Positions 5,512 to 36,199 of a stretch of DNA of 64,000 bases are shown piece after piece. Below the pieces are notes generated by a model. The model was not told where the DNA came from. It saw only the letters and a list, made by a program, of their open reading frames with translations, and made no database searches. The stretch is from assembly GCA_024276575.1 (NCBI GenBank), contig JAJRWY010000312.1, positions 1,161-65,160 of the forward strand, given 5' to 3'. Every line of letters starts with the position of its first letter. Position 1 is the first letter of the stretch. This DNA is from Candidatus Binatota bacterium. GTDB lineage: Bacteria > Desulfobacterota > Binatia > UBA1149 > CAITLU01. Both the position numbers and the translations under genes were made by a program.

Positions 5512-6345
5512 TTAAGCCCCGCGCACGTCGAGGGCTTCCCGCAATGCGTCTCCCAGTGTGTTGAGAGCCAGCACGGTCAAGCTGATGGCGATTCCGGGAA
5601 AGACGGTCAGGTGCGGGGCAATGAGGAGAAAACTGCGGCCTTCGTTGAGCATGGAGCCCCAGGATGCTTGCGGCGCTTGCACTCCCAGGCCCAGGAAACT
5701 CAACCCAGCCTCTGCGGTTATTGCTCCCGCCAACCCGAAGCTGGCCTGAACCGTCAAAGGTCCGGCTAGCATAGGCATTATGTGGCGGCTGAGTATGCAC
5801 AACGGCGTTACGCCCAGTGATCGGGCCGCTTCGACGTGCTCGCGTTTCTTCAGCGCCAGCACTTCGCCGCGGACCAAGCGAGCGTAGCCCGTCCATCCGA
5901 TCAGACTCAAGGCTAGCACCACGTTGACCAGCGACGGGCCCAGCACTGCGCTCATTGCGATTGCCAGCAGTATCCCGGGGAAGGCCATCAGTATGTCGAT
6001 GAAACGTGAGATCCAGAAATCGACCGCAGCTCCGGCATAGGCTGATATGGCGCCGACGGAAACTCCGATAAGCAATGAAAAACTAATAGTTAGCAGTCCA
6101 ACGTAAAGGGATACACGAGCCCCGTGCAGGAGCCGGCTAAGTTGGTCCCTGCCCAGCTTGTCCTGCCCCAACGGATGCTCGATGGAGGGTGGCGCGAGGT
6201 TCTCCGCGAGTTGTTGGCGGTCGGGCGGGTAGGGCGCGAGCAGGTCCGCACCGATCGCGGCGGTGCATAGTATCGCGATTACTGCCGATCCGAAGGCAAT
6301 GCCACGCCGGCGAGCCCTGCCTTTGTTTTCAGTCGGAGTCGTCAA
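5512..6345 (-). CDS. ABC transporter permease, peptide/nickel type (DppC/OppC-like)
   Basis: Multi-TM BPD-type permease with EAA loop EAARSLGVTPLCILSRHIMP. It overlaps the upstream permease gene by 17 nt. Confidence 0.85.
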   Translation of the reverse strand: MTTPTENKGRARRRGIAFGSAVIAILCTAAIGADLLAPYPPDRQQLAENLAPPSIEHPLGQDKLGRDQLSRLLHGARVSLYVGLLTISFSLLIGVSVGAISAYAGAAVDFWISRFIDILMAFPGILLAIAMSAVLGPSLVNVVLALSLIGWTGYARLVRGEVLALKKREHVEAARSLGVTPLCILSRHIMPMLAGPLTVQASFGLAGAITAEAGLSFLGLGVQAPQASWGSMLNEGRSFLLIAPHLTVFPGIAISLTVLALNTLGDALREALDVRGA

Positions 6346-12577: not shown

Positions 12578-13297
12578 GTGGCCTATCTCCCTGTATTTTT
12601 GAATGTTAAGGATCGCCGTTGCTTGGTTGTCGGGGGTGGCCCGGTAGCTGCGGGCAAGACCCGGCTACTGCTGGAGTATGGGGCGAAAACCGTCGTGGTC
12701 GGCAAGCATTTGTGTCCTGCCTTGGTGGAACTCATAGGGCGGTGGGGCCTAGAGTTCAGTGAGCGCGAGTACCGGCCTGATGACCAGCAAGGGGTCATGC
12801 TGGTGTTTGCGTGCACCGATTCTCCGGACGTACAGGCTCAGATATTAAGTGATGCACGACGATTCGGTGTGTTGGCCTGCCGTGTGGACGACGGTTCCGT
12901 TTCCGACTTCTGCAGTGCGGCGCTCATCCAACGAGGAGAGGTCTGCGTGGCGGTATCTACCTCAGGCTCGAGTCCGGCGCTAGCCGCCCGGATAAAGCGA
13001 GAGTTGGAGCCATACATAGGTTCCCACTATGGTGTGGCGGCGACACTCCTCGGGCGTGTTCGCGAGCAGGGCTACCGCGGCGTGGCGGTAAATTCGGACG
13101 CCGGCTTGGGAAGCGGCCCCCCCGTAGACCCGGAAGTTTTTGCGGAATTATTCGGACGCGGTTTTTTGGACTTGTTGGCTCGAGGGCAACTACAACAAGC
13201 AGTCGCTTTGCTCGAGGAGTTGTGCGGGTGGCGGCACGATGCGGGGCCGGTGGAGCCTGTAGGGCCTGAGATACGACGAGGGAAGCGAAAGGATTGA
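12578..13297 (+). CDS. Precorrin-2 dehydrogenase / sirohydrochlorin ferrochelatase (CysG N-terminal domain type, SirC-like)
   Basis: YLPVFLNVKDRRCLVVGGGPVAAGKTRLLL Rossmann N-terminus and VAVSTSGSSPALAARIKRELE, characteristic of siroheme synthase N-domain proteins. Confidence 0.8.
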   Translation: MAYLPVFLNVKDRRCLVVGGGPVAAGKTRLLLEYGAKTVVVGKHLCPALVELIGRWGLEFSEREYRPDDQQGVMLVFACTDSPDVQAQILSDARRFGVLACRVDDGSVSDFCSAALIQRGEVCVAVSTSGSSPALAARIKRELEPYIGSHYGVAATLLGRVREQGYRGVAVNSDAGLGSGPPVDPEVFAELFGRGFLDLLARGQLQQAVALLEELCGWRHDAGPVEPVGPEIRRGKRKD

Positions 13298-13300
13298 GAA

Positions 13301-14131
13301 TTGGAACTGCTGGCTCTCGAGTTTGCTTGCTTTGCTTACCTTACGGCTGCGGCTGCCTACATGACAGGCATAGCCTATCCATCGGATTGGACGCGGCGTT
13401 TGGGGCCCTGGGCGCTGGGAACGGCCTTTGTTCTGCAATCTCTTTCCGTCGTCCTACACGTCATCGATACCGGCGTGATCCCGGTCGAAGGGTTTACTGA
13501 GGGACTCGCATTCTTCGCTTGGCTTCTGGTTGCCACCTACGTCTTCGTACAGCGCAAGCAGGAGGTGTCAGTACTGGCTGCGGCAATAGCACCGATGGCT
13601 TTCCTGTTTACTCTGCTGGCGATCGAGTTTTATTCCGAAAGGACGGTGCTGCCGGAGTCATGGCAGACTCCATGGCTGACGGTGCATGTAACCCTGGCTT
13701 TTCTCGGCAACGCGGTGTTTGGCCTCGCCTTTGTCGTCAGCCTCGTCTACCTGGTCCAGGAACGACTGCTCAAATCTCACCGCAGGGCTTGGATGATCCG
13801 CCGCTTGCCCGCTCTGGAAACTATGGACAGGCTCGGATACCTGTTCTTGTTCTGGGGCTTCCCCCTGCTTTCGCTGGGAATGGTAAGTGGCGGGGTCTGG
13901 GCTTTGAGTATGCTCGGCAAGTTCTGGACCTGGGAACCGCGCGAGATTCTTTCGGTTATCACCTGGGTTCTGTACGCCGGCTTGCTCGAGTTCCGCCTAG
14001 TCGGCGGCCTGCGGGGTAAGCGAGCCGCCTACCTCACTATTTTGGGCTTTATGGTGCTGGTGGTTTCCTACATCGCCGTCACCCTGATTTCCGTGCCCGG
14101 CGCCAGGCACGGCGGTGTATACACTTCTTGA
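13301..14131 (+). CDS. Cytochrome c assembly protein family membrane protein (CcsA/HemX-like)
   Basis: Eight-TM-like profile with a Trp-rich segment (GKFWTWEPREILSVITWVLYA). It sits immediately upstream of hemA, as in hemAX-type clusters. Confidence 0.72.
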   Translation: MELLALEFACFAYLTAAAAYMTGIAYPSDWTRRLGPWALGTAFVLQSLSVVLHVIDTGVIPVEGFTEGLAFFAWLLVATYVFVQRKQEVSVLAAAIAPMAFLFTLLAIEFYSERTVLPESWQTPWLTVHVTLAFLGNAVFGLAFVVSLVYLVQERLLKSHRRAWMIRRLPALETMDRLGYLFLFWGFPLLSLGMVSGGVWALSMLGKFWTWEPREILSVITWVLYAGLLEFRLVGGLRGKRAAYLTILGFMVLVVSYIAVTLISVPGARHGGVYTS

Positions 14132-14143
14132 GGAAGCCGGGTA

Positions 14144-15418
14144 GTGTCACGCCAACTATCGATACTGGGGCTGAATCACCGCACTGCGCCGGTCGAGCTG
14201 CGCGAGAAGCTGGCCATGACCGAAGGCCGCGGCGAAGGCGTGCTCGCGTCTCTTCTTACTCACGACCACATAGAGGAAGTGGTGTTGCTCTCCACCTGCA
14301 ATCGGGTCGAGATTGTCTACTGCAGCCGCGAAGGTCCGATTGAGACTGAGGAGATGACCGGCTTCCTAGTCGAGGGCACCGGGCTGAGTGTGGATGAATG
14401 CGTGCCTTACCTTTACAGTTTCGAGAACCGGGAAGCGGTCAGGCATCTGTTCCGTGTGGCCTCTAGCCTGGACTCCATGGTTGTGGGCGAGCCGCAGATC
14501 CTCGGCCAAATGAAGGAGCAGTTTGACGCGTCGGTGGACGCGCATAGTGCCGGTCCTGTACTTCACCGTGTCTTTCACAAGAGTTTCTCGGTGGCCAAGC
14601 GGGTGCGTTCGGAAACCGGAATCGCCTCGAGAACGGTTTCGGTCGCCTCCACGGCGGTGGATCTGGCCAGTCATATCTTCGAGAGCCTGGAGGGCCGGAC
14701 CGTGCTGCTGATCGGCGCCGGCGACATGGGGGAGACTGCCGCGCGCCATTTCCAGGGCGCGGGGGTCAAGGACATCATGGTGGCCAACCGCACTTTTGAA
14801 AACGGCGTAGCCCTGGCCAGGGAGTTGGGAGGGACGCCGATTCCGCTCGAGCGCCTGTCCAACTACTTGCCGCTCGCCGACCTAGTGGTGGGTTCAGCCG
14901 GGGGTGGGGAGATGCTCAGCGCCAAGGAGGTCAAGGGCCTCATGCGTGAGCGCAAGGGCCGTGCGGTATTCTTCATAGATGTCGCGGTTCCCCGCAACTT
15001 CGATCCTGCGATAAACAAGATCGACGGCGCTTATCTTTACGACATGGACGACCTCTCGTCGGTGGTAGAGGAGAACCTCGAGGAAAGGCAGCGTGAGGCG
15101 GTAAAAGGCGAGGCCATAGTGGAGGGGGAGGTCGACCATTTCTGGTTGTGGTTCGAGAAACTCGGGGTAATTCCCACGATCGTTGCTTTGCGTGAGTATG
15201 CCGAGGAGATTCGCAATCAAGAACTGGAGCGTACCGTTGCCAAGCTCAACGGCATCAGCGAGGAAGACAGGATACGTATAGACCATATGACTCGTTCTAT
15301 CGTCAATAAACTACTGCATAGGCCGACCAGCGTATTGAAACGTGAAGTTCGCCCGGATGAAGAAACTCGTATGTTGAGCGCGGTTCGCAAGCTTTTTTCC
15401 TTGGAGGACGAACTGTGA
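14144..15418 (+). CDS. hemA: Glutamyl-tRNA reductase
   Basis: LSILGLNHRTAPVELRE, catalytic Cys in LLSTCNRVEIVY, VGEPQILGQ, and NADPH loop GAGDMGE. Confidence 0.93.
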   Translation: MSRQLSILGLNHRTAPVELREKLAMTEGRGEGVLASLLTHDHIEEVVLLSTCNRVEIVYCSREGPIETEEMTGFLVEGTGLSVDECVPYLYSFENREAVRHLFRVASSLDSMVVGEPQILGQMKEQFDASVDAHSAGPVLHRVFHKSFSVAKRVRSETGIASRTVSVASTAVDLASHIFESLEGRTVLLIGAGDMGETAARHFQGAGVKDIMVANRTFENGVALARELGGTPIPLERLSNYLPLADLVVGSAGGGEMLSAKEVKGLMRERKGRAVFFIDVAVPRNFDPAINKIDGAYLYDMDDLSSVVEENLEERQREAVKGEAIVEGEVDHFWLWFEKLGVIPTIVALREYAEEIRNQELERTVAKLNGISEEDRIRIDHMTRSIVNKLLHRPTSVLKREVRPDEETRMLSAVRKLFSLEDEL

Positions 15419-16359
15419 AGCTTCGTGTGGGTACGCGGAGGAGCCCCCTTGCCTTGGCCCAGGCCGGCCAAGGTATGCGCTCGGTAGTGGACAAGGCCGG
15501 GGGCGGTGAGTGGGAGTTGATTGAGATGGTCACTACCGGTGACCGCGTTCAGGACCGTCCGTTGCGCGACGTCGGAGGTAAGGCCCTGTTCGTGCGTGAG
15601 CTTGACGATGCCCTGCTGCGTGGAGATGTCGATTGCGCCATTCATTCGCTGAAAGATGTCCCCAGCGATTTGCCGGCCGGCATCGTAATTGCCGCAGTGC
15701 TCGAACGTGCCGACGTGCGTGATCTGTTGATCAGCAAACGGGGCCTGGCGCCGGCGGAGCTTGCGCCGGGGGCGCTGGTCGGCACCACTAGTTTGAGGCG
15801 TGCATCGCAACTGCTGGCCGTAAACCCGCAGGTGAAAGTCGAAACCATACGAGGCAATGTAGCCACGCGCTTGGGGCGCTTGATGGATGGGGATTTCGAC
15901 GCGACCTTTTTGGCTGCTGCGGGTATCGCGCGGCTCGGTGCCGACCTCGGAGCGGCAAAAGCCCTAGCATTAGATCCTTGGGAGTTTATTCCTGCTCCCG
16001 GGCAGGGGGCGCTGGCCATTACTGCACGTGAAGACGACCGGAAATGCAGGGATTATCTGGCTATGGCCGAGGATGGGGCGGCGCGTGCGGCGGTTGAGGC
16101 GGAGCGCGCGCTGGCGAGAGTTTTCGGCGGCGGTTGCCATCTGCCCATCGGCGTCTATGCCGAGGCCGGGCCGGGCAGCTTAAGGATGATCGCGGTCGTG
16201 GTTTCATCTGATGGGCGCCGTTTGCTGCGCGACGAGGCTTCAGGCGAGGCTAGTCACGCGGCTGCCGTGGGTGAGGCTTTAGGCCGGCGTATGCTGGAAA
16301 ACGGCGGTGCTGAGATCGTTGCCGAAGCGGAAGCGGCTGCAGCTGGGGGGCTGGTCTGA
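15415..16359 (+). CDS. hemC: Hydroxymethylbilane synthase (porphobilinogen deaminase)
   Basis: LRVGTRRSPLALAQ, IHSLKDVP, GNVATRL, and cofactor Cys in GGGCHLPIG. 4-nt overlap with hemA. Confidence 0.9.
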   Translation: MKLRVGTRRSPLALAQAGQGMRSVVDKAGGGEWELIEMVTTGDRVQDRPLRDVGGKALFVRELDDALLRGDVDCAIHSLKDVPSDLPAGIVIAAVLERADVRDLLISKRGLAPAELAPGALVGTTSLRRASQLLAVNPQVKVETIRGNVATRLGRLMDGDFDATFLAAAGIARLGADLGAAKALALDPWEFIPAPGQGALAITAREDDRKCRDYLAMAEDGAARAAVEAERALARVFGGGCHLPIGVYAEAGPGSLRMIAVVVSSDGRRLLRDEASGEASHAAAVGEALGRRMLENGGAEIVAEAEAAAAGGLV

Positions 16360-16376
16360 GCGGGCGGGTCTATCTT

Positions 16377-17852
16377 GTGGGTGCGGGGCCCGGAGATCCC
16401 GGCCTGCTGACTCTTCGCGGGAAAGAGGCCCTCGAGCGGGCTGATGTAGTCCTCTATTACGCGCTAGCGAACTCCCGCCTGCTCGATTTTGCCCCCGCCG
16501 GGGCTGAACGCATACTCGTCGGACATCGCCACGGTCAGGAGACGGTCGGGCAGAACAGCATCGAGGAGATGCTGGTGGACTACGCTCGACGCGGTAAGAG
16601 CGTGGTTCGGTTGAAGGGCGGAGACCCCTTTGTATTTGGCCGGGGCGCGGAAGAAGCCCAGGCTTGTGCGATTGCGGGGGTGCCATTTTCGGTGATACCC
16701 GGCGTGAGTTCGGCCTCGGCCGCTCCCGCCTATGCAGGCATAGCCCTGACCCACCGTGACCTGTCTTCTTCGTACACAGTGGTGACCGGCCGTCCGGGAC
16801 GCAACCGGGACGGTGAAGAGGTAGAGGCCGACTGGGAATCTTTGGCGCGAGGTGGCGGTACTTTGGTACTGCTGATGGCGATGACGCGAATCTCAGAGAT
16901 CTCCGCGAAGCTAATCGGTGCCGGTATGTCTGCGGAAACTCCTGCGGCTGCGGGTCGCTGGGGAACTCTGCCCCGGCAAAAGACAGTGACCGGATGTCTC
17001 GGAGATATTGCGAATACGGCCGCCGCGGAGTTGATACGGCCGCCGGTGGTTTTCGTGATAGGAGACGTGGTGCGGCTCGCTGAAAGCATCTACTGGTACG
17101 AGAAACTGCCACTGTTCGGGCGTCGCATCGTGGTCACCCGCGCCCGCCATCAAGCTGCGGAATTTTCGCGTCGTCTGGAGGAATCCGGTGCCTGGGTGCT
17201 CGAGTATCCGACCATAGAGATCCGGCGGCTCGAGATAGCCGATAGCCGTCTGGACGAGGTTGCGGGTGCGGATTGGCTCTTGTTCAGCAGTGTCAACGGG
17301 GTCGAGCATTTCTTCGCGAGTTATCTCGCAGCCGGGCGTGACCTGCGCGAGCTTGCCGGCGTAGGAATTGCCGCTATCGGACCGGCCACCGCCGCGGCGG
17401 TGAAGCGGCGTGGCCTGAAGGTGGACGTGCAGCCTTTAGAGTATCGAGCGGAGGCCTTGCTCGAAGCCTTGGGGGAAGTCCGCGGAATGCGGATGATACT
17501 GGCGCGGGCCAAGGTGGCTCGTGAGGTGCTGCCCGAACAGCTCCGGGCGCGCGGCGCCGAAGTCACGGTGCTTCCGGTCTACCAGACCGTGGTGCCGCCT
17601 GATTCTTCGCAGTTCACGGAGTTCGGCGAAGTCGACATGGTTACTTTTACCAGCGCGAGTACCGTAGGGAACTTCGACCGTATAAACGGAGGACGGGCCG
17701 CCGAACTCCTGGCCGGAGTCAAGGTCGCGGCGATCGGACCGATTACCGCTGCGGCTCTCAGGGACAAGGGTATTGGGGTCGACGCCATGCCGCACGATTA
17801 TACGATTCCCGCGCTAGCCGCCGAGATAGAGCGCTGCTTTGCAAATGGCTAA
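16377..17852 (+). CDS. Uroporphyrinogen-III C-methyltransferase fused to uroporphyrinogen-III synthase
   Basis: The N-terminal half is CobA/SUMT-like ([35 protein letters not shown]). The C-terminal half is HemD-like ([21 protein letters not shown] ... FTSASTV). Confidence 0.88.
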
Positions 17853-17875
17853 GCGCTAAACTAGCATTTTGCATC

Positions 17876-18844
17876 ATGCCTTTTCCTGAGCAACGGCCTC
17901 GAAGACTACGTCGCAACGAAACCATACGCCGTATGGTTCGCGAAACTTCTGTGGGTAGCGACGATCTCATGCTGCCGCTTTTCGTGGTTCCTGGTAGCAG
18001 CGTGGAAAATGAAGTGGCTTCGATGCCCGGAGTGTTTCAGCAATCGGTCGATAAAGTGGTGGAGACCGCCAGGCGTGCCGCCGGTCTCGGAATTCCCGCG
18101 GTGCTGCTGTTCGGTATTCCTGAGCACAAGGACCCGCGGGGCAGCGAAGCCTGGCGACGGGACGGAGTCGTGCAGAACGCTGTGCGGGCGATCAAGGAGG
18201 CGGTCCCGGAGCTATGTGTAACGACCGATGTCTGTCTTTGCGAGTATACCGACCACGGGCACTGTGGAGTACTATCCGGCGATAGTGTCGACAATGACGA
18301 AACCTGCGAGCTATTGGTTGCCGAAGCGGTTTCTCACGCCGAAGCAGGAGCCGATCTCATCGCGCCTTCGGATATGATGGATGGACGTGTGGACGCGATC
18401 AGGGAAGGACTCGACGACAAAGGTTTCGAGGAGATTCCGATAATGTCTTATGCCGCCAAGTACTGTTCGGGTTTTTATGGACCCTTCCGGGACGCGGCGG
18501 AGTCGGCTCCGCGCTTCGGCGACCGGCGCTCATACCAGATGGACCCGTCCAACTCCGACGAAGCGTTGCTCGAGGTCGAGCTTGATATCGAGGAAGGCGC
18601 CGACATTCTGATGGTGAAACCGGCGATGCCTTACCTCGACATAATCCGCCGGGTCAAGGACGAGTTTCAACGTCCACTGGCCGCCTACCAGGTCAGCGGT
18701 GAGTTCGCGATGATAAAAGCGGCGGCGGCGAGGGGATGGCTTGATGAGCCGCGTGTGGTTGCCGAAAGCCTGACTGCGATAAAGCGTGCGGGGGCGGACA
18801 TCATAATTAGTTATTTCGCGTTGGATTTCGCGAAGGGGGTTTGA
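17876..18844 (+). CDS. hemB: Porphobilinogen synthase (zinc type)
   Basis: Cys-rich zinc site [14 protein letters not shown], and active-site lysines in [16 protein letters not shown] and [12 protein letters not shown]. Confidence 0.93.
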
Positions 18845-18877
18845 ATCGAGCTGTCGCGGAAGTTTCTCGCCTGCGTT

Positions 18878-20302
18878 TTGGCGCTAGTCTGCGTGGGGCA
18901 TCCGGCTCTTGTTCATGCTTCGATTAGCCAAGAGAAGAAGATGGGGGAAGAGTTTCTCGCGCAGGCGCGCCTGCAGATCCCCCTGGTTCATGACTACGAG
19001 GTTTTGAGCTTCGTCCGAGAACTCGGAACCCGCTTGGTCGCCACGTTAAAGGATCAGCCTTTCGACTACGAGTTCTTCGTGGTTCGCTCGGACGATATAA
19101 ATGCCTTTGCGGTGCCGGGAGGAAAGATATTTTTTAATGCGGGGCTTATTGCGAGAGTCGAGAGCGAAGACGAGTTGGCTGGTGTCATGGGCCATGAAAT
19201 CGCCCACTCTCATGCTCACCACATAGTTCGGCAAGAGCAAAAGAGTGCCCCAACCAACTATGCAGCTCTGCTCGGCATGCTGCTCACCGTCATTCACCCG
19301 GCACTTGGTGTCGCCGCCCTGTCGGCGGCCAACGCACAAACGCTGAAATATCAGCGTGATTTCGAACGCGAAGCGGATTTCCTGGGAGTCGGCTATGCGC
19401 GCGCAGCCGGTTTCGAAGAGGAGGCTATAATGCACTTGCTTCGCAAGTTGTTTGCGGAGCAGCAACTCAATCCCACGCTTGTTCCTCCCTATTTGAGTTC
19501 GCACCCCTTGACCGGCGAGCGTTTGAGCAACTTGGAGGCGGTGCTGGGGAATAACGAGTGGACGGGTAAGAAACTCGAGCGAAGTTACCGGCTGAAGCGT
19601 GTGCAGGCCATCGTGCGTGGGTTGTCTCAGCGTCGTGAGCAGGTAGTGCCTGAGTTTGAAAGAATGCTCGAGAGCGCCTCTGCGACCGAACGCCCCCTAG
19701 CGCTGGAACTCATGGGAATAATGATGACCCATGGCGAGGACTATGCGCTTGCACGGCCCTACCTCGAACAGGCGCGAGACGCCGGACGTAACGTGGATAG
19801 AGAACTCGGGAGAGTCTATGCACGGCTGGGAATGTCGGAGAAGGCGCTCGAGTATCTGCAGAGGGCTGCCGAGGCGCACCCGGACGATTGGAACGTTTTG
19901 GCGGACCTTGGACGCACGGAGTACCAACTCAAAGACTACGAGGGTGCGAAAGAACACCTGGAGAAGTCGGTACGTTTGTATCCCTACCTGCCGGAGGTGT
20001 TGCGTACTCTGGGAAGAGGGCTTGGAGCCTCGGATCAGGAAGGCGAGGGCTTCTACCGGTTCGGCCAGGCCTCGGAGTTGGAAGGGCATCTGGCGCAGGC
20101 GCACTATTACTACACGAAGGCGCTGGAAACATTGCCCGAAGATCATCCGTTGCGCAAGGAACTCTCCACGCACATGACGGAAGTAGAGGAAGAGGTGGGG
20201 GAAACGGAACCGGTCCCGCATCCGCGCCGCAGGGGAGACCCACCGCGTGACCCCCGCCGCGGGAGGTTCCGGCCTCAGGAAATAGGGCCGGGTATTCAAT
20301 GA
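18878..20302 (+). CDS. M48 family metalloprotease with TPR domain (BepA-like)
   Basis: HEIAHSHAHH (HExxH), a downstream ER..E region, and C-terminal TPR repeats. The signal-peptide-like N-terminus seems to begin upstream of the TTG at 18878 (see findings). Confidence 0.8.
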   Translation: MALVCVGHPALVHASISQEKKMGEEFLAQARLQIPLVHDYEVLSFVRELGTRLVATLKDQPFDYEFFVVRSDDINAFAVPGGKIFFNAGLIARVESEDELAGVMGHEIAHSHAHHIVRQEQKSAPTNYAALLGMLLTVIHPALGVAALSAANAQTLKYQRDFEREADFLGVGYARAAGFEEEAIMHLLRKLFAEQQLNPTLVPPYLSSHPLTGERLSNLEAVLGNNEWTGKKLERSYRLKRVQAIVRGLSQRREQVVPEFERMLESASATERPLALELMGIMMTHGEDYALARPYLEQARDAGRNVDRELGRVYARLGMSEKALEYLQRAAEAHPDDWNVLADLGRTEYQLKDYEGAKEHLEKSVRLYPYLPEVLRTLGRGLGASDQEGEGFYRFGQASELEGHLAQAHYYYTKALETLPEDHPLRKELSTHMTEVEEEVGETEPVPHPRRRGDPPRDPRRGRFRPQEIGPGIQ

Positions 20303-21333
20303 CCTCTTTGTTAAGTGAGCGGGTGGCGCGCATGAAGGGCTACGTTCCGGGAGAGCAGCCCCGCGCAGGCACGCTACTGAAGCTCAACACCAACGAAAAT
20401 CCGTATCCTCCTTCGCCGCGGGTTCTGCGGGCGGTGGGGGAGGCCGCCTCTCGAGACCTACGCTTATACCCCTCGGCGCGCGCCGACGAACTGCGCGAGG
20501 CGGCGGCTCAATGTTACGGATGTAGGCCGGAGCAGGTATTGGCAGCCAATGGATCGGACGAAATTCTGGCGCTGTGCCTGAGAGCCTGTGTCAGTGAAGG
20601 TGACGTGGTGGCCTTCCCGCGGCCCACGTACTCGCTTTACCCGACTTTGGCTGAGGCAGCCGGTGCCAGCATCGTCGAGGTTCCCGCTTTGCCCGGCGAG
20701 ATCCCGGCCGGCCTGCTCGAGGCCGGCGCCGCGGTTACTTTTCTGTGCAGTCCCAACTCTCCGAGCGGTGCGAGCCTGCAACTACAGGAAATATCGCGCT
20801 TCGCCCAGGCGGCGGGTGGCCTCGTGGTGGTCGATGAAGCCTACGTCGATTTTGCTTCGCACAGCGCCTTGGAGATTCTCGACCGGCATTCGAACCTGCT
20901 GGTAAGCAGGTCTTTTTCCAAGTCTTTCTCGATGGCCGGAGTAAGGCTAGGGCTTGGCTTCGCCGCTCCGGATCTGATCGAGGGGCTGAACCGGGTAAAG
21001 GATTCCTACAATGTTTCGCGTTTGGCGGCAGCGGCCGGTGTGGCTGCCCTGGCCGACTATCGCTGGATGCGTGACAGCGCTGCCAAGGTTTGTGCCACCC
21101 GGGATCGTACGATCTCCCGGCTTCGCCAGGCCGGTTGGCAGGCGGCCGACTCCGATGCAAATTTTTTCTGGCTGGACTGCGGCGGGGAAGGGGGGCTGAG
21201 CGTTTACCGGCGCCTGCGTGACGGCGGGGTTTTGGTTCGCTACTTCAACACAGAAGAACTTCGCGGGGGTGTACGTGTTAGCGTCGGTACGGATGAGCAG
21301 ATGGAGCGTTTCTTGGCAGTACTCGGAGTGTGA
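20299..21333 (+). CDS. hisC: Histidinol-phosphate aminotransferase
   Basis: Class-II aminotransferase pattern: LNTNENPYPPSP, NPNSPSG-like CSPNSPSG, and PLP lysine in SRSFSKSFSMAGVRLG. Confidence 0.85.
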   Translation: MTSLLSERVARMKGYVPGEQPRAGTLLKLNTNENPYPPSPRVLRAVGEAASRDLRLYPSARADELREAAAQCYGCRPEQVLAANGSDEILALCLRACVSEGDVVAFPRPTYSLYPTLAEAAGASIVEVPALPGEIPAGLLEAGAAVTFLCSPNSPSGASLQLQEISRFAQAAGGLVVVDEAYVDFASHSALEILDRHSNLLVSRSFSKSFSMAGVRLGLGFAAPDLIEGLNRVKDSYNVSRLAAAAGVAALADYRWMRDSAAKVCATRDRTISRLRQAGWQAADSDANFFWLDCGGEGGLSVYRRLRDGGVLVRYFNTEELRGGVRVSVGTDEQMERFLAVLGV

Positions 21334-31397: not shown

Positions 31398-31703
31398 ATG
31401 TGGCCTTTCGACAATAGCTTCTATGAGGAAATATCGGCTCGGTTCGAAACTCTGCTCAAGGACGGTGAGGACGCCGGAAATACCAATGATCTGTCGGCTT
31501 TGCTTGCTCCGGTGGATCCTTTCAACCGTTCACCCTTGTTTACACCGGTCGTGAAAGCTCTGGGCGTCGCTGCGTTGGTAGCAATGACCGGGCTTGCCGC
31601 AGCCGGTTTAGTCGTGGCCTTCGTTGCTTTCCTCGGTCTTTACTTCTTGCTTACCGAAGTATTCGGTTACGAGCTTTCTCTGGCACCGCTGCAACCGATG
31701 TAG
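31398..31703 (+). CDS. Hypothetical small membrane protein
   Basis: Begins 5 nt after the previous gene. The acidic N-terminal half is followed by two hydrophobic helices (ALGVAALVAMTGLAAAGLVVAFVAFLGLYFLL). No homology support. Confidence 0.4.
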   Translation: MWPFDNSFYEEISARFETLLKDGEDAGNTNDLSALLAPVDPFNRSPLFTPVVKALGVAALVAMTGLAAAGLVVAFVAFLGLYFLLTEVFGYELSLAPLQPM

Positions 31704-32332
31704 ATTGCGTCTTGCCGTACGGCGAGACCGAGTATTAGAGCACAGGCGACGGCTGCCGCATCGCATGCCGCCACCGCGTGCCGCCACTGGCGCAGGTGCT
31801 TGTCGTAGCCACCGGCCTGCCGGCTGCGGTCTGAATAACGCGCGGGGAAATCGAGACCGGATGGTCCGTGATCTTGCGTTCGACGGTGGCTTGGCAAGGC
31901 GCCGTAGTTACGACAATCGCTAAACAGATCAGGAAGCGGTGCCTGTGGATGCACTCCGCAAACGAAACCGCAACCACCGCCATCCGGCTCAAAAGTGTAC
32001 CATACAATCGGTACCGAAGTTTTGCGGGCATGTTCGATTTGGTTCAGATCCGAATGCTCGACTCCCGCTACTATGTAGCAGGCGATAGAAGTGGATGTTT
32101 GTGTAGCTTTGCGACCTCGTCCCCGGAGGCTTTCAATGCCTGGACCATCGCTGCGCGAGGATACGCTGACCCCCGCTGCTCTCAAGTAAAGGGATGCTTG
32201 TTCCACGCCGCGAGGGTGCCCGAGCAGTACCACTGTCGCCGCCAGTAACTTTCCCTGGCCTTCCGCACCGATGCCGGGGATGATGATCTGTCGCGCATAG
32301 CGTTCAATGCTCTCATCATCGAGAGTAGCCAT
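31667..32332 (-). CDS. ThiF/MoeB-family (E1-like) protein with degenerate nucleotide-binding site; possibly a pseudo-enzyme or decaying gene
   Basis: The N-terminus IERYARQIIIPGIGAEGQGKLLAATVVLLGHPRGVEQASLYLRAAGV aligns with ThiF MRYSRQILL..I..DGQQKLL...VLIIGLGGLG..AALYLAGAGV, but GxGxxG is replaced by GHPRGV and the DxxxxSNLQRQ segment is missing. Later segments (VPIVWYTFEPDGGGCGFV, LPDLFSDC) still follow the ThiF pattern. Confidence 0.5.
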   Translation of the reverse strand: MATLDDESIERYARQIIIPGIGAEGQGKLLAATVVLLGHPRGVEQASLYLRAAGVSVSSRSDGPGIESLRGRGRKATQTSTSIACYIVAGVEHSDLNQIEHARKTSVPIVWYTFEPDGGGCGFVCGVHPQAPLPDLFSDCRNYGALPSHRRTQDHGPSGLDFPARYSDRSRQAGGYDKHLRQWRHAVAACDAAAVACALILGLAVRQDAIYIGCSGARESS

Positions 32333-32359
32333 ATCGCTAGCGAGGTCGTAGAGCAGATC

Positions 32360-32599
32360 TCATTCTATGACGTTCTTCTCTATCGGCTCGACAGTGACGC
32401 CTTGCTCGGCGATCCATCGTACGGCCCGGTCAATCTCGTCTTGCTCACCTTCGAGTTCGAGAGCCATGATGCCCACATGCTCAGAAATCGAAGCACCGCG
32501 TATATTGGTGACCACGCGGAACTTGTGTCCGACGTGGTAAACGATCGGCTCCTTTATCTTCTCTTGGCTGTAGGTCAGGTAGAAACGTTGAAGTGTCAT
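32360..32599 (-). CDS. Free-standing NIL-domain protein
   Basis: The 79-aa sequence (IVYHVGHKFRVVTNIRGASISEHVGIMALELEGEQDEIDRAVRWIAEQGVTVEPI) resembles the C-terminal NIL domain of MetN. ATGA overlap with the cysM-like stop. Confidence 0.7.
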   Translation of the reverse strand: MTLQRFYLTYSQEKIKEPIVYHVGHKFRVVTNIRGASISEHVGIMALELEGEQDEIDRAVRWIAEQGVTVEPIEKNVIE

Positions 32600-33579
32600 T
32601 GGTTCTCCTCCGCGGCGGCGAGTTCATGGCGGTCGCGCCAGCCGGTCCACAGATTCGTAGATAAGTAGCGGTCGCCAAAATCGGGTAGCACTACCACCAC
32701 GCACCCGGATTGCAACTCCGCAGCCACTTCCAGTGCTGCGACTACCGCGGCACCGGAGGACTGTCCGACCAGCAGACCTTCTTTGGCGGCCAACTCGTAA
32801 ACCATCTCGTAAGCGGCATCGGTAGCCACACCCACCTTGCGGTCGAAGCCGGATTCGTCGTAAATACCCGGCACGATCGAGCTGCCCATGTGCTTCAAGC
32901 CTTCTATCCCGTGGAAGGCGTCGTCGGGCTCCACGGCTATTATTTCGACCTCAGGCTTGCGCGATCTCAAGTAGCGGCCGCAGCCCATTACGGTTCCGCT
33001 GGTACCGATCGTGGCGAGAAAGTGAGAGACGCGGCCGGCAGTTTGCTCCCAGATCTCGGGTCCTGTGGTCAGGAAGTGGGCCTCCGGATTGGCCGGGTTG
33101 TAGTACTGGTCGGGTTTGAAGTACGCGTCGGGATCGGCGTCGAACATCTTTTTGGCCAAGACGATGGAGCCGTCGGACCCTTCCATCGGATCGGACTCGA
33201 CTATTTCGGCGCCGTAAGCCGCAATCACCCGCAATCGTTCGCGTGAGGCGTTGGCGGGTATCACTAATTTTACCGGATATCCCAGCGCAGCGCCGATCAT
33301 CGCCAGCGCGATGCCGGTGTTGCCGGAAGTAGAATCGAGAATGGTTTTGCCGGGGCGTAAGTGTCCGTCTTCCAATCCACGACGCACCATGTTCCAGGCC
33401 GGGCGGTCTTTGACCGAACCGCCGGGGTTGAAGCCCTCGACTTTGGCGTACACTTCTACACCGCCGGCCAAGTGCGGGGTTACACCTCGCAGTTGGAGCA
33501 ACGGTGTGTCGCCGATCAAGTCGAGTATGCCTGTGGCCTCCGCCTCATTAAGGGTCGGCTGTTGGCGAGTCCGGTGCAC
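32596..33579 (-). CDS. cysM: CysM/CysK-family PLP-dependent sulfhydrylase (cysteine synthase B-like)
   Basis: IGDTPLLQL, PLP lysine in NPGGSVKDRPA, STSGNTGIALA, and GTSGTVMG. GTG 33579 is the only usable start upstream of the conserved ILDLIGDTPL. Confidence 0.85.
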   Translation of the reverse strand: MHRTRQQPTLNEAEATGILDLIGDTPLLQLRGVTPHLAGGVEVYAKVEGFNPGGSVKDRPAWNMVRRGLEDGHLRPGKTILDSTSGNTGIALAMIGAALGYPVKLVIPANASRERLRVIAAYGAEIVESDPMEGSDGSIVLAKKMFDADPDAYFKPDQYYNPANPEAHFLTTGPEIWEQTAGRVSHFLATIGTSGTVMGCGRYLRSRKPEVEIIAVEPDDAFHGIEGLKHMGSSIVPGIYDESGFDRKVGVATDAAYEMVYELAAKEGLLVGQSSGAAVVAALEVAAELQSGCVVVVLPDFGDRYLSTNLWTGWRDRHELAAAEENQ

Positions 33580-33854
33580 GCGCCGCCGGCGATAGCGGGA
33601 ACGATGGAGATTTCGTCGCCGTCTTTGACGGCGGACTCCAGGTCATCAAGAAAGCGAATGTCATCGCCGTTCACGTAAACATTTACGAAACGCCGTACTG
33701 AACCGTCGCGTTCGCAGATGCGCTCCTTGAGGCCTGGATGGGCTGCCTCGACGCTGTCGAGAACCGCGGCCACGGTCGAGCCTTCTGCGTCGACGGCTTC
33801 GTTGCCGCCTGTAAACTTTCTCAGGGGTGTGGGGATTCTTACCCGGACTGCCAT
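33516..33854 (-). CDS. MoaD/ThiS-family sulfur-carrier protein (CysO/MetO-like) with 21-codon extension beyond Gly-Gly
   Basis: ATG 33854 is preceded by AGGAGGAAC. The 91-aa beta-grasp-like sequence ends ...DGDEISIVPAIAGG, which is typical carrier length, and then the ORF continues ACTGLANSRPLMRRRPQAYST to TGA 33516. Confidence 0.8.
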   Translation of the reverse strand: MAVRVRIPTPLRKFTGGNEAVDAEGSTVAAVLDSVEAAHPGLKERICERDGSVRRFVNVYVNGDDIRFLDDLESAVKDGDEISIVPAIAGGACTGLANSRPLMRRRPQAYST

Positions 33855-33891
33855 GTTGTAGTTCCTCCTAAGTCGAATTCCGCCGATCCTA

Positions 33892-35184
33892 TCACGAACC
33901 GGTGGCCGGAGAAGCAATCGTGGAAGCCTGATCGCCGCCGGCTGTCTTGCCGGCTTCAAGACGCTCGTAAAGACGGTCGAATTCGTCGAGACGTGCTGCG
34001 ATATCGTGGGTGACCGGAACCGAATCACGAACCGCCTCGAGGGTCTTGTAGCCGTTGCCGGTAATAGAGATGACGATCGACTCATCTCGGGGTATGCGGC
34101 CTTGCTCTATGAGTTTCTTGGTAACCGCCACCGTGGTGCCCCCGGCCGGCTCGGTAAACACACCTTCCGTACGCGCCAGTAGTTTGATTGCTTCCACTAT
34201 TTCTTCGTCGCTAGCTGATTCACCCCATCCTCCGGAATCCCTGACCGCTCCGAGAACGTAATAGCCGTCGGCCGGGTTGCCGATCGCGATCGACTTGGCG
34301 ATGGTATGAGGCTTTACCGGTTCGATAAGGTCGGTTCCCCGGTGAAGGGCGTTGACGACCGGAGCGCAACCGGCGGCTTGCGCGGAGTATATCTTGAATC
34401 CGCTCTGCTCGACCAAGCCTACCCGCTGCAGCTCTTCAAAGGACTTGGCGACTTTGGGCAAGATGGTGCCGCCGGCGGTAGGAACGACGATGTGTTGGGG
34501 GAGCTTCCAGCCGAGTTGTTCGGCCACTTCGAATCCGTAAGTTTTGGCTCCTTCGGTGTAAAAAGGCCGCAGGTTGATGTTTGCGAAAGCCCAGCCGTAC
34601 TTGTCCGCGATCTCGGTGCACAGGCGGTTAACGTCGTCATAATTGCCGGAGATCGCGACCGGGACCGGGTTGTATATGGCCGATCCCACCACCTTGCCTT
34701 GTTCGAGGTTGTCGGGGATGAAGATGAAGCACCGCAGGCCGGCGCGTGCTGCATGGGCGGAAACGGAATTGGCTAGGTTGCCGGTAGAGGCGCATGCGAC
34801 GGTTTCGAAGCCGAACTCGACCGCTTTGGTCAGCGCGACCGAGACTACGCGGTCCTTGTAGGAGAAGGTCGGGTGGTTGACCGAATCGTCTTTTACGTAG
34901 AGTTCCGAGACGCCGAGCACTTCTGCCAAGCGATCGGCTTTGAGCAAGGGAGTAAAACCTGAATACAGGCCGATACGCGGCTCGGACTCCACCGGAAGCA
35001 ACTCGCGATATCTCCACAGGTTGGGTGGCCTCGCTTCAATGGTCTTGCGATCGACCGCAGCCGATATCTTGTCATAGTCGTATTCTACTTCGAGGGGGCC
35101 AAAGCAGTATTCACAGACGTGGTAGGGCTTGAGTTCGTAAGCCTCGCCACATTCACGGCACTTGAGGCCTTTTACAAAAGACAT
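33892..35184 (-). CDS. Threonine synthase-family PLP enzyme with N-terminal zinc ribbon (candidate carrier-dependent homocysteine synthase, MetM-like)
   Basis: ATG 35184 is preceded by AAGGAGA. Zn ribbon CRECG...CEYC, PLP lysine in HPTFSYKDR, and CASTGN. The functional split between ThrC and MetM cannot be decided from sequence here. Confidence 0.85.
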   Translation of the reverse strand: MSFVKGLKCRECGEAYELKPYHVCEYCFGPLEVEYDYDKISAAVDRKTIEARPPNLWRYRELLPVESEPRIGLYSGFTPLLKADRLAEVLGVSELYVKDDSVNHPTFSYKDRVVSVALTKAVEFGFETVACASTGNLANSVSAHAARAGLRCFIFIPDNLEQGKVVGSAIYNPVPVAISGNYDDVNRLCTEIADKYGWAFANINLRPFYTEGAKTYGFEVAEQLGWKLPQHIVVPTAGGTILPKVAKSFEELQRVGLVEQSGFKIYSAQAAGCAPVVNALHRGTDLIEPVKPHTIAKSIAIGNPADGYYVLGAVRDSGGWGESASDEEIVEAIKLLARTEGVFTEPAGGTTVAVTKKLIEQGRIPRDESIVISITGNGYKTLEAVRDSVPVTHDIAARLDEFDRLYERLEAGKTAGGDQASTIASPATGS

Positions 35185-35198
35185 GGTAGTTATCTCCT

Positions 35199-35957
35199 TC
35201 AGCGGTCGATGCCGGGCGCTGCAGCGGCGGGCTCGTAACCGCGGGGTCGTGAACGGGTTTCCCCCGAGCGGGAGCATCGCGGGCAAGCGGGATCCCTGGG
35301 GAAATATACATGGCGCCAACGGCACCCTGACAATTCATAGATATTCATGCGGCCGGGACACAGGCTTTTGTCTCCACCAAGGTAACGAAGCGCGTCTTGC
35401 GCTTGTGCGGTTCCCACCAAGCCGGCCACTGGTGCGAGAATGCCCATAGCTGAACAGCCGCCGTCGGCTTCCTGCGGGTGGTCGTCGGGGAAAGCGCATG
35501 CGAGGCAGGCCGACACGCCCGGCACCACGGTCATCCATTGGCCGGTGGTTCTGATCACACCGCCGTAACAGAAAGCGGTGCCGGTCGAGACTGCAACGGC
35601 GTTTATCATGAATTTCGTGGCCGGGTCGTCACAAGCGTCGATCACGAAATCATGAGAGGAAACGAGGCTCTCGGCGTTGCCGGTGTTCAACGTATCTTCG
35701 ATGGGACGAATTTCAGTGGTAACAGGGCCGCCGGCGGATGCGGCTAGAGCCTTACGCGCGGCCTCGGCCTTGGGTGCTCCGACGTCGCTGTCGCCGAACA
35801 AGACCTGCCGCTGCAGGTTCGAAAGCTCGATGCGGTCGGGGTCGATAATCGTGAGTTTGGCAACTCCGGCGCCCACGAGCATGCGCGCGGCAGCGCAACC
35901 GAGGGCGCCGACGCCCACCAACAGAACCGAATCTTTTGTTTGCTGCTGCAAGTACAA
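35199..35957 (-). CDS. ThiF/MoeB-type adenylyltransferase (E1-like sulfur-carrier activating enzyme)
   Basis: VLLVGVGALGCAAARML, IIDPDRIELSNLQRQVLF, IDACDD, and zinc cysteines CLAC...CPRC. The N-terminus is very short (only 15 aa before the glycine loop) and the start is TTG. Confidence 0.85.
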   Translation of the reverse strand: MYLQQQTKDSVLLVGVGALGCAAARMLVGAGVAKLTIIDPDRIELSNLQRQVLFGDSDVGAPKAEAARKALAASAGGPVTTEIRPIEDTLNTGNAESLVSSHDFVIDACDDPATKFMINAVAVSTGTAFCYGGVIRTTGQWMTVVPGVSACLACAFPDDHPQEADGGCSAMGILAPVAGLVGTAQAQDALRYLGGDKSLCPGRMNIYELSGCRWRHVYFPRDPACPRCSRSGETRSRPRGYEPAAAAPGIDR

Positions 35958-35990
35958 AAAAACCTCTTCCAGGCGGGATAAGGAAGAGGT
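35956..35990 (-). terminator. Intrinsic terminator forming the riboswitch expression platform
   Basis: Minus strand: ACCTCTTCC - 11-nt loop - GGAAGAGGT, a perfect 9-bp stem followed by a run of T (7 consecutive T counting the last stem base). The 5' arm region CCTCTTCCTTAT can alternatively pair with the 3' P1 strand ATAAGGAGAGG as an antiterminator. Confidence 0.8.
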
Positions 35991-36013
35991 ACTGGGTCGC
36001 GGCGACAGGCCTC

Positions 36014-36164
36014 TCCTTATCTTTCACCCTCTTTGCATTTGCGTGAACTCGATTACGCGCTCACCGCAACGCTAAGGTGCGGGACTTAGCACCTGCCGCC
36101 CGCTTGCGCAGGCCGGTTGCTGTGGCTTCACAGGGCCCATTCCCTCCGCCACTCTGAATAAGGA
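36014..36164 (-). promoter_or_regulatory. SAM-I (S-box) riboswitch aptamer
   Basis: Minus strand: P1 TCCTTAT...ATAAGGA. The conserved core reads TTCAGAGTGGCGGAGGGAATGGGCCCTGTGAAGCCACAGCAACC, then GGTGCTAAGTCC, then GAAAGATAAGGA. It closely matches the S-box consensus (CTTATCAAGAG.GGTGGAGGGACTGGCCC.ATGAA.CC.GCAACC ... GGTGC.AATTCC ... AGATAAG). Confidence 0.9.
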
Positions 36165-36170
36165 ACGGAA

Positions 36171-36199
36171 AGGGTAGCGGCACTAGGCCTCACTGTCAA
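36171..36199 (-). promoter_or_regulatory. Sigma70-type promoter for the riboswitch operon
   Basis: Minus strand: TTGACA, a 17-nt spacer, then TACCCT. It ends 6 nt before the first P1 base of the riboswitch. Confidence 0.6.

Follow-up and report, generated by a model that had tools for sequence, protein, structure and literature searches.

A SAM-I riboswitch-linked operon of the MetM/MetO type in a Candidatus Binatota bacterium, with a NIL-domain protein and a putative split E1 enzyme

The cysteine pathway of Mycobacterium tuberculosis formed by CysO, CysM, MoeZ, and Mec depends on a sulfur-carrier protein. For homocysteine, a pathway that involves HcyS, HcyF, HcyD, and MetY has been reported from Wolinella succinogenes (Krishnamoorthy and Begley, 2011, as cited in PMC5764234). 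In Streptomyces albulus, O-phosphohomoserine is converted to homocysteine via a thiocarboxylate, with MetO as the carrier, Mec as the hydrolase, MoeZ as the E1 enzyme, and MetM, a homologue of threonine synthase (ThrC) (Hasebe et al., 2024, Appl Environ Microbiol 90:e01247-24, as outlined in 10.1101/2024.10.14.618325), and an S-adenosylmethionine (SAM) riboswitch is reported upstream of metM in PMC12172450. In this work, we analyzed 64,000 nucleotides from Candidatus Binatota bacterium (contig JAJRWY010000312.1, positions 1,161 to 65,160; hereafter the window), these 64 kb being the genome-level data behind all results on this organism. In the window, six tightly packed genes on the minus strand follow a SAM-I riboswitch and encode, in this order, an E1 enzyme, a ThrC-like enzyme, a MoaD-type sulfur carrier, a CysM-like enzyme, a NIL-domain protein, and an E1-like protein (genes 1 to 6). 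We read this locus as a SAM-repressed operon for protein-thiocarboxylate-dependent synthesis of sulfur amino acids, with a heteromeric E1 and a NIL partner, and put the probability of this reading at about 0.7.

The likeness to the MetM/MetO system of S. albulus lies in the SAM-I riboswitch, the ThrC-homologous pyridoxal 5'-phosphate (PLP) enzyme, and the MoaD-type carrier encoded directly downstream, a layout that is also seen in Nonomuraea (locus L048). In actinomycetes, MetM/MetO is a two-gene module with Mec and the rhodanese-containing E1 MoeZ encoded at other sites, and the stop codon of the carrier gene directly follows Gly-Gly. The window operon, in contrast, adds its own E1 without a rhodanese domain, a CysM-like enzyme, a NIL protein, and a pseudo-E1; its carrier has a tail, and no Mec or JAMM gene is found nearby. 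With the M. tuberculosis system, the locus shares a CysK/M-family enzyme encoded beside an E1-activated ThiS/MoaD carrier, as well as the expectation of a JAMM hydrolase for the adduct and for C-terminal processing. It differs in that the enzyme is nearer to E. coli CysM, no Mec is present in the cluster, the single carrier is also paired with a MetM-type enzyme, and the whole unit is predicted to be under SAM control. The features in common with Wolinella are the residues after Gly-Gly that would need removal, a dedicated E1 without rhodanese, thiocarboxylate-dependent formation of homocysteine (as predicted for the window), and a linkage to sulfate assimilation, which is seen here in relatives of the window. 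However, the acceptor enzyme of Wolinella is MetY, which has another PLP fold and uses O-acetylhomoserine, whereas it is a ThrC homologue here; none of the six genes contains a MetY domain and no JAMM-motif open reading frame (ORF) was found, which places the locus outside the Wolinella type.

An earlier sequence-only reading of the window had pointed to a MetM/MetO route to homocysteine in Streptomyces, which is indeed the pathway published in 2024, including the SAM riboswitch upstream of metM. It had also delineated the six-gene operon on the minus strand, and each element that it listed is present in place. Its further claim that the combination matches no described system holds for the extended six-gene form, but not for the SAM-I/MetM/MetO core, which has already been described. 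What is new is the extended operon, and three features stand out: a carrier flanked by a MetM-type and a CysM-type enzyme, a near-universal NIL protein, and a truncated E1 that is always accompanied by a pseudo-E1 that keeps the arginine finger. Our literature search found no description of the NIL partnership or of the pair of truncated E1 and pseudo-E1.

The six genes are separated by 14, 37, -64 (overlap), -4 (overlap), and 27 nucleotides (nt), counted from gene 1 to gene 6. This gene order recurs in dozens of independent contigs, so the arrangement is not due to chance. The contigs reached through homologues of gene 6 have the same six genes in the same order and also share the flanks, namely, an ArsA-like ATPase, YfiO/BamD, and a tyrosine-phosphatase-like gene, followed by a pair of extracytoplasmic function (ECF) sigma and anti-sigma factors and PolA. 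Contigs labelled Dormibacteraeota and Kryptonia carry the same flanks and operon. In a scan of species-representative genomes, true relatives of gene 6 were found only in uncultured metagenome-assembled genomes (MAGs) labelled Binatia (which lies within the candidate phylum Binatota), Myxococcales, and Deltaproteobacteria, and all of these loci that are of sufficient length have the six-gene order. The mean pairwise identity among the loci compared is 79% for MetM, 71% for the carrier, 70% for the CysM-like enzyme, 69% for NIL, and 50% for E1, and the relatives of gene 6 are about 40% identical to the window copy. A metagenome scan with the MetM alignment provided 80 further loci at 57-84% identity.

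Gene 2 (33892-35184, minus strand; PALP, 217 bits) is a candidate homocysteine synthase of the MetM type, a ThrC-family PLP enzyme with an N-terminal zinc ribbon of four cysteines (CxxC...CxxC), in agreement with what had been read from the sequence. For comparison, we used a locus of Nonomuraea gerenzanensis (L048) as a proxy for the characterized MetM/MetO of S. albulus. The locus has a SAM-I riboswitch (68.7 bits), then a ThrC homologue with a zinc ribbon, and then a 91-residue MoaD-type carrier that ends in Gly-Gly and a stop codon, with no E1, CysM, or NIL gene nearby. Gene 2 is 52% identical to the Nonomuraea homologue (387 bits over residues 7-402), and the two carriers are 49% identical. 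Solved bona fide ThrC structures score at most 193 bits against gene 2, their alignments begin only at residues 52-58, and they lack the zinc ribbon. Because the riboswitch-linked Nonomuraea locus is close and the solved ThrCs are distant, genes 2 and 3 together with the riboswitch constitute a MetM/MetO-type module. The carrier gene lies directly downstream of gene 2 (with the gap of 37 nt), and this pairing is kept across approximately 60 loci. The earlier claim of a SAM-controlled carrier route that leads primarily to homocysteine gains support from this metM-metO-type orthology.

Gene 2 might instead encode a threonine synthase with a housekeeping role that only happens to lie within a cysteine operon of the CysO/CysM type. 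It passes NCBIfam models named 'threonine synthase' (PRK08197, 312 bits against a cut-off of 303), and more than 100 clusters that are 76-87% identical to it are all labelled in this way. However, MetM is commonly misannotated as threonine synthase, as noted by the authors of GapMind (10.1101/2024.10.14.618325). Moreover, the predicted control of the operon is by a riboswitch for SAM rather than by threonine, nearly all relatives have the carrier gene immediately downstream, and gene 2 is orthologous to riboswitch-metM-metO-type loci that lack any CysM. Together with the greater distance of the solved ThrCs, these observations leave a housekeeping role very improbable. A function as cysteate synthase was also considered and was ruled out by the score of 67 bits against a cut-off of 325.

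The carrier gene (gene 3; 33516-33854, minus strand) matches ThiS at 68.5 bits and exceeds the cut-offs of the SAMP1 and MoaD_arch models, which agrees with the MoaD/ThiS fold and the ...AIAGG ending noted before. The mature part comprises 91 residues up to AIAGG (33854-33582) and is followed by a tail of 21 residues (33581-33519) and a stop codon, such that the ORF ends at 33516, beyond the point where the CysM-like gene begins. Among orthologues, the tails after Gly-Gly have 0, 1, 2, 3, 6, 8, 12, or 21 residues and are not conserved. A tail that varies in this way is typical of pro-carriers processed by a protease, one of which this carrier may be; the tail would then imply a protease encoded outside this operon. 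In other lineages, MetM clusters do have ORFs with a JAMM motif (EACGIL...HSHP...S..D) at their flanks (L090, L093, L105, L112, L113, and L124).

Several other variations were observed at this end of the carrier. In the carriers of L101 (from 2267), L103 (from 1436), and L109 (from 1687), a second ...PAIAGG is located 7-8 residues after the first (e.g., GG-TSNGYGA-PAIAGG-R), which represents a tandem duplication of the C-terminal activation motif. In L075 (3343-3915), the carrier ORF runs beyond Gly-Gly into a domain of approximately 100 residues that is not NIL. In the window (33516-33600), the carrier tail, translated in its own frame, reads TGLANSRP... and is similar to the N-terminal sequence TGASTADRP... 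of the L001 CysM-like protein. This resemblance suggests that insertions and deletions at the junction may have removed the carrier stop codon and reshaped the variable CysM N-terminus.

The leader of the operon contains a SAM-I (S-box) aptamer at 36014-36164 (minus strand) with an insertion of 42 nt in P4. It matches RF00162 with 75.8 bits (gathering score 44.4; E = 5.5e-16) over model positions 1-108 of 108, and SAM-I is the sole Rfam family that reaches its gathering score in the 64-kb window. The expression platform, as derived from folds, occupies 35956-36021 on the same strand and comprises an antiterminator strand, a terminator hairpin, and a U7 tract. The hairpin has a 9-bp stem and an 11-nt loop (35990-35962), is followed by U7 (35962-35956), and is part of the minimum-free-energy fold. 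The antiterminator strand (36021-36010) consists of the 3' side of P1 plus GAGG and competes with the terminator hairpin. A fold computed without the 5' part of the aptamer contains the antiterminator helix GAUAAGGAGAGG : CCUCUUCCUUAUC, in which the P1 3' strand and GAGG pair with the 5' half of the hairpin. This layout is the standard S-box OFF design. The aptamer and the 9-bp terminator with its U run had both been proposed from the sequence, and both hold up.

A putative sigma-70-type promoter, read from the sequence, lies upstream (36171-36199, minus strand) and consists of TTGACA (36199-36194), a 17-nt spacer, and TACCCT (36176-36171). The sequence-only reading had called it near-consensus, which is true of the -35 element alone because the -10 element matches only three of the six consensus positions. 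In related leaders, TTGAC, 17 nt, and TAnnnT recur at the same distance from the aptamer, and the spacing is therein kept. A simple promoter and terminator scanner called neither element in this leader because of the weak -10 element and the 11-nt terminator loop; we judged both by folding and by conservation across loci. All 13 related leaders have a terminator with U6-U9, and nine of them contain the motif GGAAGAGG-U5-7-UUG-UA(C/U). The 3' strand of the terminator stem, GGAAGAGG (35970-35963), resembles a Shine-Dalgarno sequence and is located 5 nt upstream of the TTG start codon of gene 1 at 35957, which is itself made of the last two U of the terminator tail and a G. We infer that the terminator hairpin may gate translation as well as transcription. 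All related loci that were examined and whose 5' end is intact have a SAM-I aptamer ahead of the operon. Among the 80 MetM-type loci of the metagenome scan, a covariance model built from the aptamers of related loci detected SAM-I in 30; in some loci, no riboswitch could be recognized.

An ordinary E1 carries, in a single chain, the segment RYxRQ(I/V)..P..G..GQ, followed by GxGGxG, DxD, NLxRQ, a Lys, DxxDN, and two CxxC motifs. The ordinary E1s found in loci L021-L044 and the E1s of the operons that we designate type A are of this kind, with the arginine finger and the ATP-site motifs in one chain. In the window, this motif set is divided between two genes at opposite ends of the operon. Gene 1 (35199-35957, minus strand; 252 residues; termed dN-E1) is a ThiF/MoeB-family E1, as had been proposed, with a Pfam ThiF match of 204 bits. 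However, this match begins at profile position 20, and the NCBIfam matches begin at model positions 20-43. In a motif alignment, gene 1 keeps the GxGALG loop, DPD, NLQRQ, the Lys, DACDD, two CxxC zinc motifs, and the conserved Cys of the crossover loop, the last of which is invariant among the nine operon E1s aligned. A rhodanese domain is absent, and so is the RYxRQ arginine-finger segment expected at the N-terminus: the first beta-strand of the window protein has only 10 residues ahead of it, and no stop-to-stop translation of the gene 1 orthologues contains RYxRQ.

Gene 6 (31667-32332, minus strand; 221 residues; termed pseudo-E1) has no Pfam match, and its only matches to E1 models are those of residues 3-56 to the N-termini of MoeB/ThiF models. 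It keeps RYARQI..G..GQ but lacks the glycine loop, DxD, NLxRQ, the Lys, and DxxDN. Its AlphaFold2 (AF2) model, with a predicted local distance difference test (pLDDT) score of 77.7, is closest to ThiF, PaaA, MoeB, and Uba4 and also matches the inactive subunits SAE1 and APPBP1. The N-terminal match, the lost ATP-site motifs, and the E1-like predicted fold bear out the earlier description of gene 6 as a degenerate E1 paralogue. Thus, neither gene 1 nor gene 6 alone carries the full motif set of a homodimeric MoeB/ThiF-type enzyme.

Gene 6 is a real and conserved gene. An exhaustive profile search found 47 representative clusters at E <= 1e-30; extended to E near 1e-20, there are approximately 75 clusters, mostly full-length matches to proteins of 150-190 residues. 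Since identity between representatives stays below 50%, the family is an old one that has been maintained. Its alignment has 17 invariant residues, eight of which fall within the first 26 positions (R11, Y12, R14, Q15, I16, G22, G25, and Q26). The family includes long forms of 207-265 residues (e.g., L039, L045, L046, L054, and L070) that keep the zinc CxxC pairs and short forms of approximately 155-170 residues that have only a Rossmann-like core and the final helix. The window copy, at 221 residues compared with about 160 in most relatives, has two insertions (residues ~60-82 and ~140-175) with AF2 pLDDT below 55.

The distribution of gene 6 follows the state of the first E1. The type A operons have the order E1-MetM-carrier-CysM-NIL, and their E1 begins with '...LSTDQIERYSRQIMVPDLGG...' right after the terminator. 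Three of them reach far enough past NIL (L057, L059, and L082), and none of the three has gene 6 there. We counted non-redundant operons with enough downstream sequence: gene 6 follows NIL in all 24 operons with a truncated first-position E1 and in none of the three with a full-length E1. These 27 operons show no exceptions (Fisher's exact test, p = 3.4e-4, a value that ignores shared ancestry, and the pattern may stem from one ancestral event), which is the pattern expected if gene 6 compensates for the loss in gene 1. ThiF Arg11 and MoeB Arg14 are arginine fingers that come from the neighbouring subunit, and in the yeast ThiF-family heterodimer Tcd1-Tcd2, Tcd1 donates the finger to the Tcd2 site (PMC13139853). 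With these precedents, we consider it slightly better than an even bet that the products of genes 1 and 6 form a heteromeric E1, as judged from motifs, fold, and distribution.

MoeB and ThiF are symmetric homodimers, and the asymmetry of active and inactive subunits has been reserved for the canonical eukaryotic E1s (PMC12355090). The candidate pair in the window resembles SAE1-UBA2, NAE1(APPBP1)-UBA3, and yeast Tcd1-Tcd2 (PMC12355090, PMC13139853), in each of which one adenylation-competent protein is paired with an inactive homologue that gives an N-terminal arginine. At the level of sequence, fold, and distribution, the window likewise has an active and an inactive adenylation module, of which the inactive one keeps the finger. 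In contrast to the eukaryotic enzymes, the pair here consists of two small bacterial proteins whose genes lie at the two ends of a biosynthetic operon, the putative active subunit physically lacks the finger, and the proposed heteromer is predicted from sequence. Neither gene 1 nor gene 6 (252 and 221 residues) contains a catalytic-cysteine domain or a ubiquitin-fold domain, and neither is accompanied by an E2. Because these domains are absent, the likeness to the canonical eukaryotic E1s is one of mechanism and not of membership.

The alternative is that gene 6 stands outside the E1 enzyme. In that case, the truncated gene 1 product would be a finger-less homodimer, and gene 6 would either be a slowly decaying relic or serve some other function, for instance as a docking scaffold for the carrier or the PLP enzymes. 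Gene 1 might indeed suffice on its own as a homodimer: MoeB and ThiF are reported not to need the arginine finger, and TcdA does not have one (PMC13139853). Within the operon, genes 6 and 1 also evolve fastest, with about 40% and about 50% identity compared with 70-80% for the others, and the C-terminal half of the E1 fold is gone from the short forms of gene 6. Furthermore, the perfect co-occurrence could trace to a single ancestral event in one lineage, and an origin of gene 6 by duplication of the operon's own E1 gained no support, with BLAST favouring no source and the long forms being no closer to the full-length E1s of the operons than to generic E1s. Against a relic stand the retention of the ORF in dozens of clusters that are mutually less than 50% identical, the fact that the invariant residues are exactly those of the finger segment missing from gene 1, and the perfectly complementary distribution (24/0/0/3). 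A role in docking the carrier is also at odds with the short forms, which lack the region that binds the carrier in complexes of the MoeB-MoaD type, a region established by structural work. We regard a gene 6 outside the E1 as unlikely, though to be taken seriously, and retain the heteromeric E1 as the preferred reading.

Gene 5 (32360-32599, minus strand) encodes a free-standing NIL domain of 79 residues (PF09383, 55.3 bits; cut-off 24) that overlaps gene 4 by ATGA, just as had been read from the sequence. It was found in 52 of 60 clusters that have MetM and the carrier, including 21 of the 26 without a CysM-like gene, and in several gene orders, such as riboswitch-NIL-MetM (L100). NIL therefore regularly accompanies the MetM/carrier branch, and it is missing from the published scheme of four proteins (MetO, Mec, MoeZ, and MetM). 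A word-indexed protein search for distant contexts of free-standing NIL proteins returned close relatives only. In two different contigs, the carrier, its Gly-Gly, a short linker, and a complete NIL domain form a single ORF (L120:3006-3602 and L124:8276-8785), and L124 also has an ORF with a JAMM motif at 3336-3755. These carrier-NIL fusions recall the ubiquitin fusion proteins that are cleaved at Gly-Gly.

The gene 5 product aligns to the C2 domain of E. coli MetN, with its Asn32 at the position of MetN Asn295. The alignment was made to 3dhx and 3dhw; PDB entry 6cvl is mutated at the Asn295 position. Across the family, TNIR is invariant in 118 of 118 members. A Cys is found in none of the 118, and a role of NIL as a relay of sulfur in the form of a persulfide was set aside as unlikely on this basis. 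The locus thus shares with MetN C2 and with the NIL-ferredoxin MA1822 (PMC5764234) the same Pfam domain, the Asn at the MetN Asn295 position, and a link to methionine or homocysteine. It differs from both in that NIL is free-standing (or fused to the carrier in some relatives), has no ATPase or ferredoxin domain, and has partners that are unrelated to DUF39.

We favour a regulatory role in which NIL would bind methionine or homocysteine. The sole characterized NIL domain, MetN C2, binds methionine and acts as a regulatory module, and the family members here have its key Asn without exception. The suggestion that NIL acts as a feedback sensor or adaptor is accordingly plausible and gains support from its association with MetM and the carrier and from the invariant Asn. 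Nearly as likely, in our judgment, though tentative, is that NIL is a structural adaptor or chaperone of the carrier rather than a sensor, for example by shielding the thiocarboxylate or by presenting the carrier to MetM. The carrier-NIL fusions imply production at a 1:1 ratio and physical proximity, NIL tracks MetM and the carrier rather than CysM, and it is about as conserved as the enzymes. In addition, the NIL-ferredoxin MA1822 is required in the unrelated DUF39 pathway to homocysteine and has no known sensing role (PMC5764234). Besides the precedent of MetN C2, an adaptor or chaperone role has against it that NIL lacks a cysteine able to carry sulfur, and we retain the regulatory role as the favoured one.

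Gene 4 (32596-33579, minus strand; PALP, 235 bits) belongs to the CysK/M family, in line with its earlier assignment as a CysM-type PLP enzyme. Its closest solved structures are CysM of E. coli and Salmonella (242 bits); M. tuberculosis CysM scores 200 bits. The position of gene 4 directly after the carrier suggests that it may perform carrier-dependent cysteine synthesis, and we consider it a probable cysteine synthase that uses either the carrier or sulfide. In some relatives, genes for sulfate assimilation (a Na/sulfate symporter, ATP sulfurylase, and adenosine 5'-phosphosulfate kinase) and a radical-SAM gene follow the operon (L046:6609-11071, L054:10572-12260, and L070:11194-11751), which fits a supply of sulfide from sulfate assimilation. 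These genes are not present downstream of the operon in the window.

Another role for gene 4 has to be weighed against general cysteine synthesis. The enzyme may feed the sulfur of cysteine into the carrier, in a protein-mediated transsulfuration, or it may need no carrier and act only with free sulfide. In favour of such a role, the operon encodes no evident sulfur donor, with neither a desulfurase gene nor a rhodanese domain in its E1. The enzyme also scores higher against E. coli CysM than against the CysM of M. tuberculosis, which depends on a carrier, and it falls just below equivalog cut-offs. However, gene 4 directly follows the carrier gene and here overlaps it, as in clusters of the cysO-cysM type, and the sulfate-assimilation genes of the relatives suggest that sulfide is available. 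We know of no precedent for a CysK/M enzyme that loads a thiocarboxylate. We hold these alternatives to be improbable and keep cysteine synthesis as the probable role.

Taken together, the operon may work as follows. At high SAM, the aptamer would close P1, the terminator would form, and transcription would stop; the probable ribosome-binding site of gene 1 would also be hidden within the stem of the terminator. At low SAM, the antiterminator would form and the six genes would be expressed. The C-terminal tail of the carrier would first be trimmed by a protease encoded elsewhere, after which its Gly-Gly end would be adenylated by the E1 and converted to a thiocarboxylate. In this E1, gene 1 would supply the ATP site, the zinc site, and the carrier-binding site, having lost the finger helix, and gene 6 would be an inactive partner with the E1 fold that supplies the arginine-finger helix in trans. 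The MetM-type enzyme would then use the carrier thiocarboxylate and O-phosphohomoserine to form homocysteine, and the CysM-like enzyme would probably use the same carrier, or free sulfide, for cysteine. NIL would most likely bind methionine or homocysteine and modulate the pathway.

In addition to the points raised above on the E1, the following observations count against this reading. No ORF with a JAMM motif was found in the window or in any Binatia-type locus, and both the tail and the expected adduct of carrier and amino acid would need such an enzyme. Two six-gene operons of type B (L054 and L056) have neither SAM-I, as searched with our own covariance model, nor any Rfam family at gathering score upstream of E1 (~6000-6300); either their regulation differs or their leader is too divergent to detect. 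The alignment of NIL to MetN is weak (E = 0.0018). Finally, gene 4 scores just below the equivalog cut-offs (TIGR01138 cysM, 361.5 bits against 394.2).

The surroundings of the operon vary among loci. In the window, a convergent ORF of 101 residues (31398-31703, plus strand) overlaps the 3' end of gene 6 by 37 nt. In L001 (8556-9328) and L002 (8542-9306), CrcB and DUF190 genes, which are fluoride-related, directly follow gene 6 on the same strand; these are not present in the window (31400-31700). Downstream of all three type A operons, there is a conserved protein with the zinc-ribbon N-terminus MLVQCP(K/S/N)C(R/H/K)TTYKVSD (L057:7038-8087, L059:11801-12970, and L082:5702-6790). Elsewhere in the window (12578-21333, plus strand), a run of ORFs has N-termini that, by eye, resemble enzymes of tetrapyrrole synthesis, namely, a siroheme synthase-like protein, HemA, HemC, a uroporphyrinogen methyltransferase/synthase fusion, and HemB.

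The broadest interpretation of these patterns combines two propositions. The first is that Binatia-type MAGs have turned the carrier E1 into an obligate two-gene enzyme, with a finger-less catalytic subunit and a pseudo-E1 of approximately 160 residues in most, in which the finger helix is the principal element that has been conserved. The second is that NIL is an unrecognized third core component of the MetM/MetO system in many phyla, sometimes made as a carrier-NIL fusion that is cleaved at Gly-Gly. We place the chance that both are correct a little short of even. If true, the split E1 would be an independent prokaryotic replay of the asymmetry between active and inactive subunits that defines eukaryotic ubiquitin-type E1s. 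The dN-E1/pseudo-E1 operons, together with the sister operons that have a one-gene E1, would then provide a small and tractable bacterial model for the change from a symmetric MoeB/ThiF homodimer to an asymmetric pair, a step that is thought to underlie the architecture of eukaryotic E1s. The carrier-NIL fusions offer a direct and testable approach to what NIL does in the metabolism of homocysteine and methionine, a long-standing question. Publication of the MetM/MetO route dates only from 2024, and its key enzyme still carries the label 'threonine synthase' in almost all annotations. As this locus shows, the route occurs widely among uncultured bacteria, usually under predicted SAM-I control and commonly together with NIL, which has consequences for metabolic reconstruction and for the prediction of auxotrophy.

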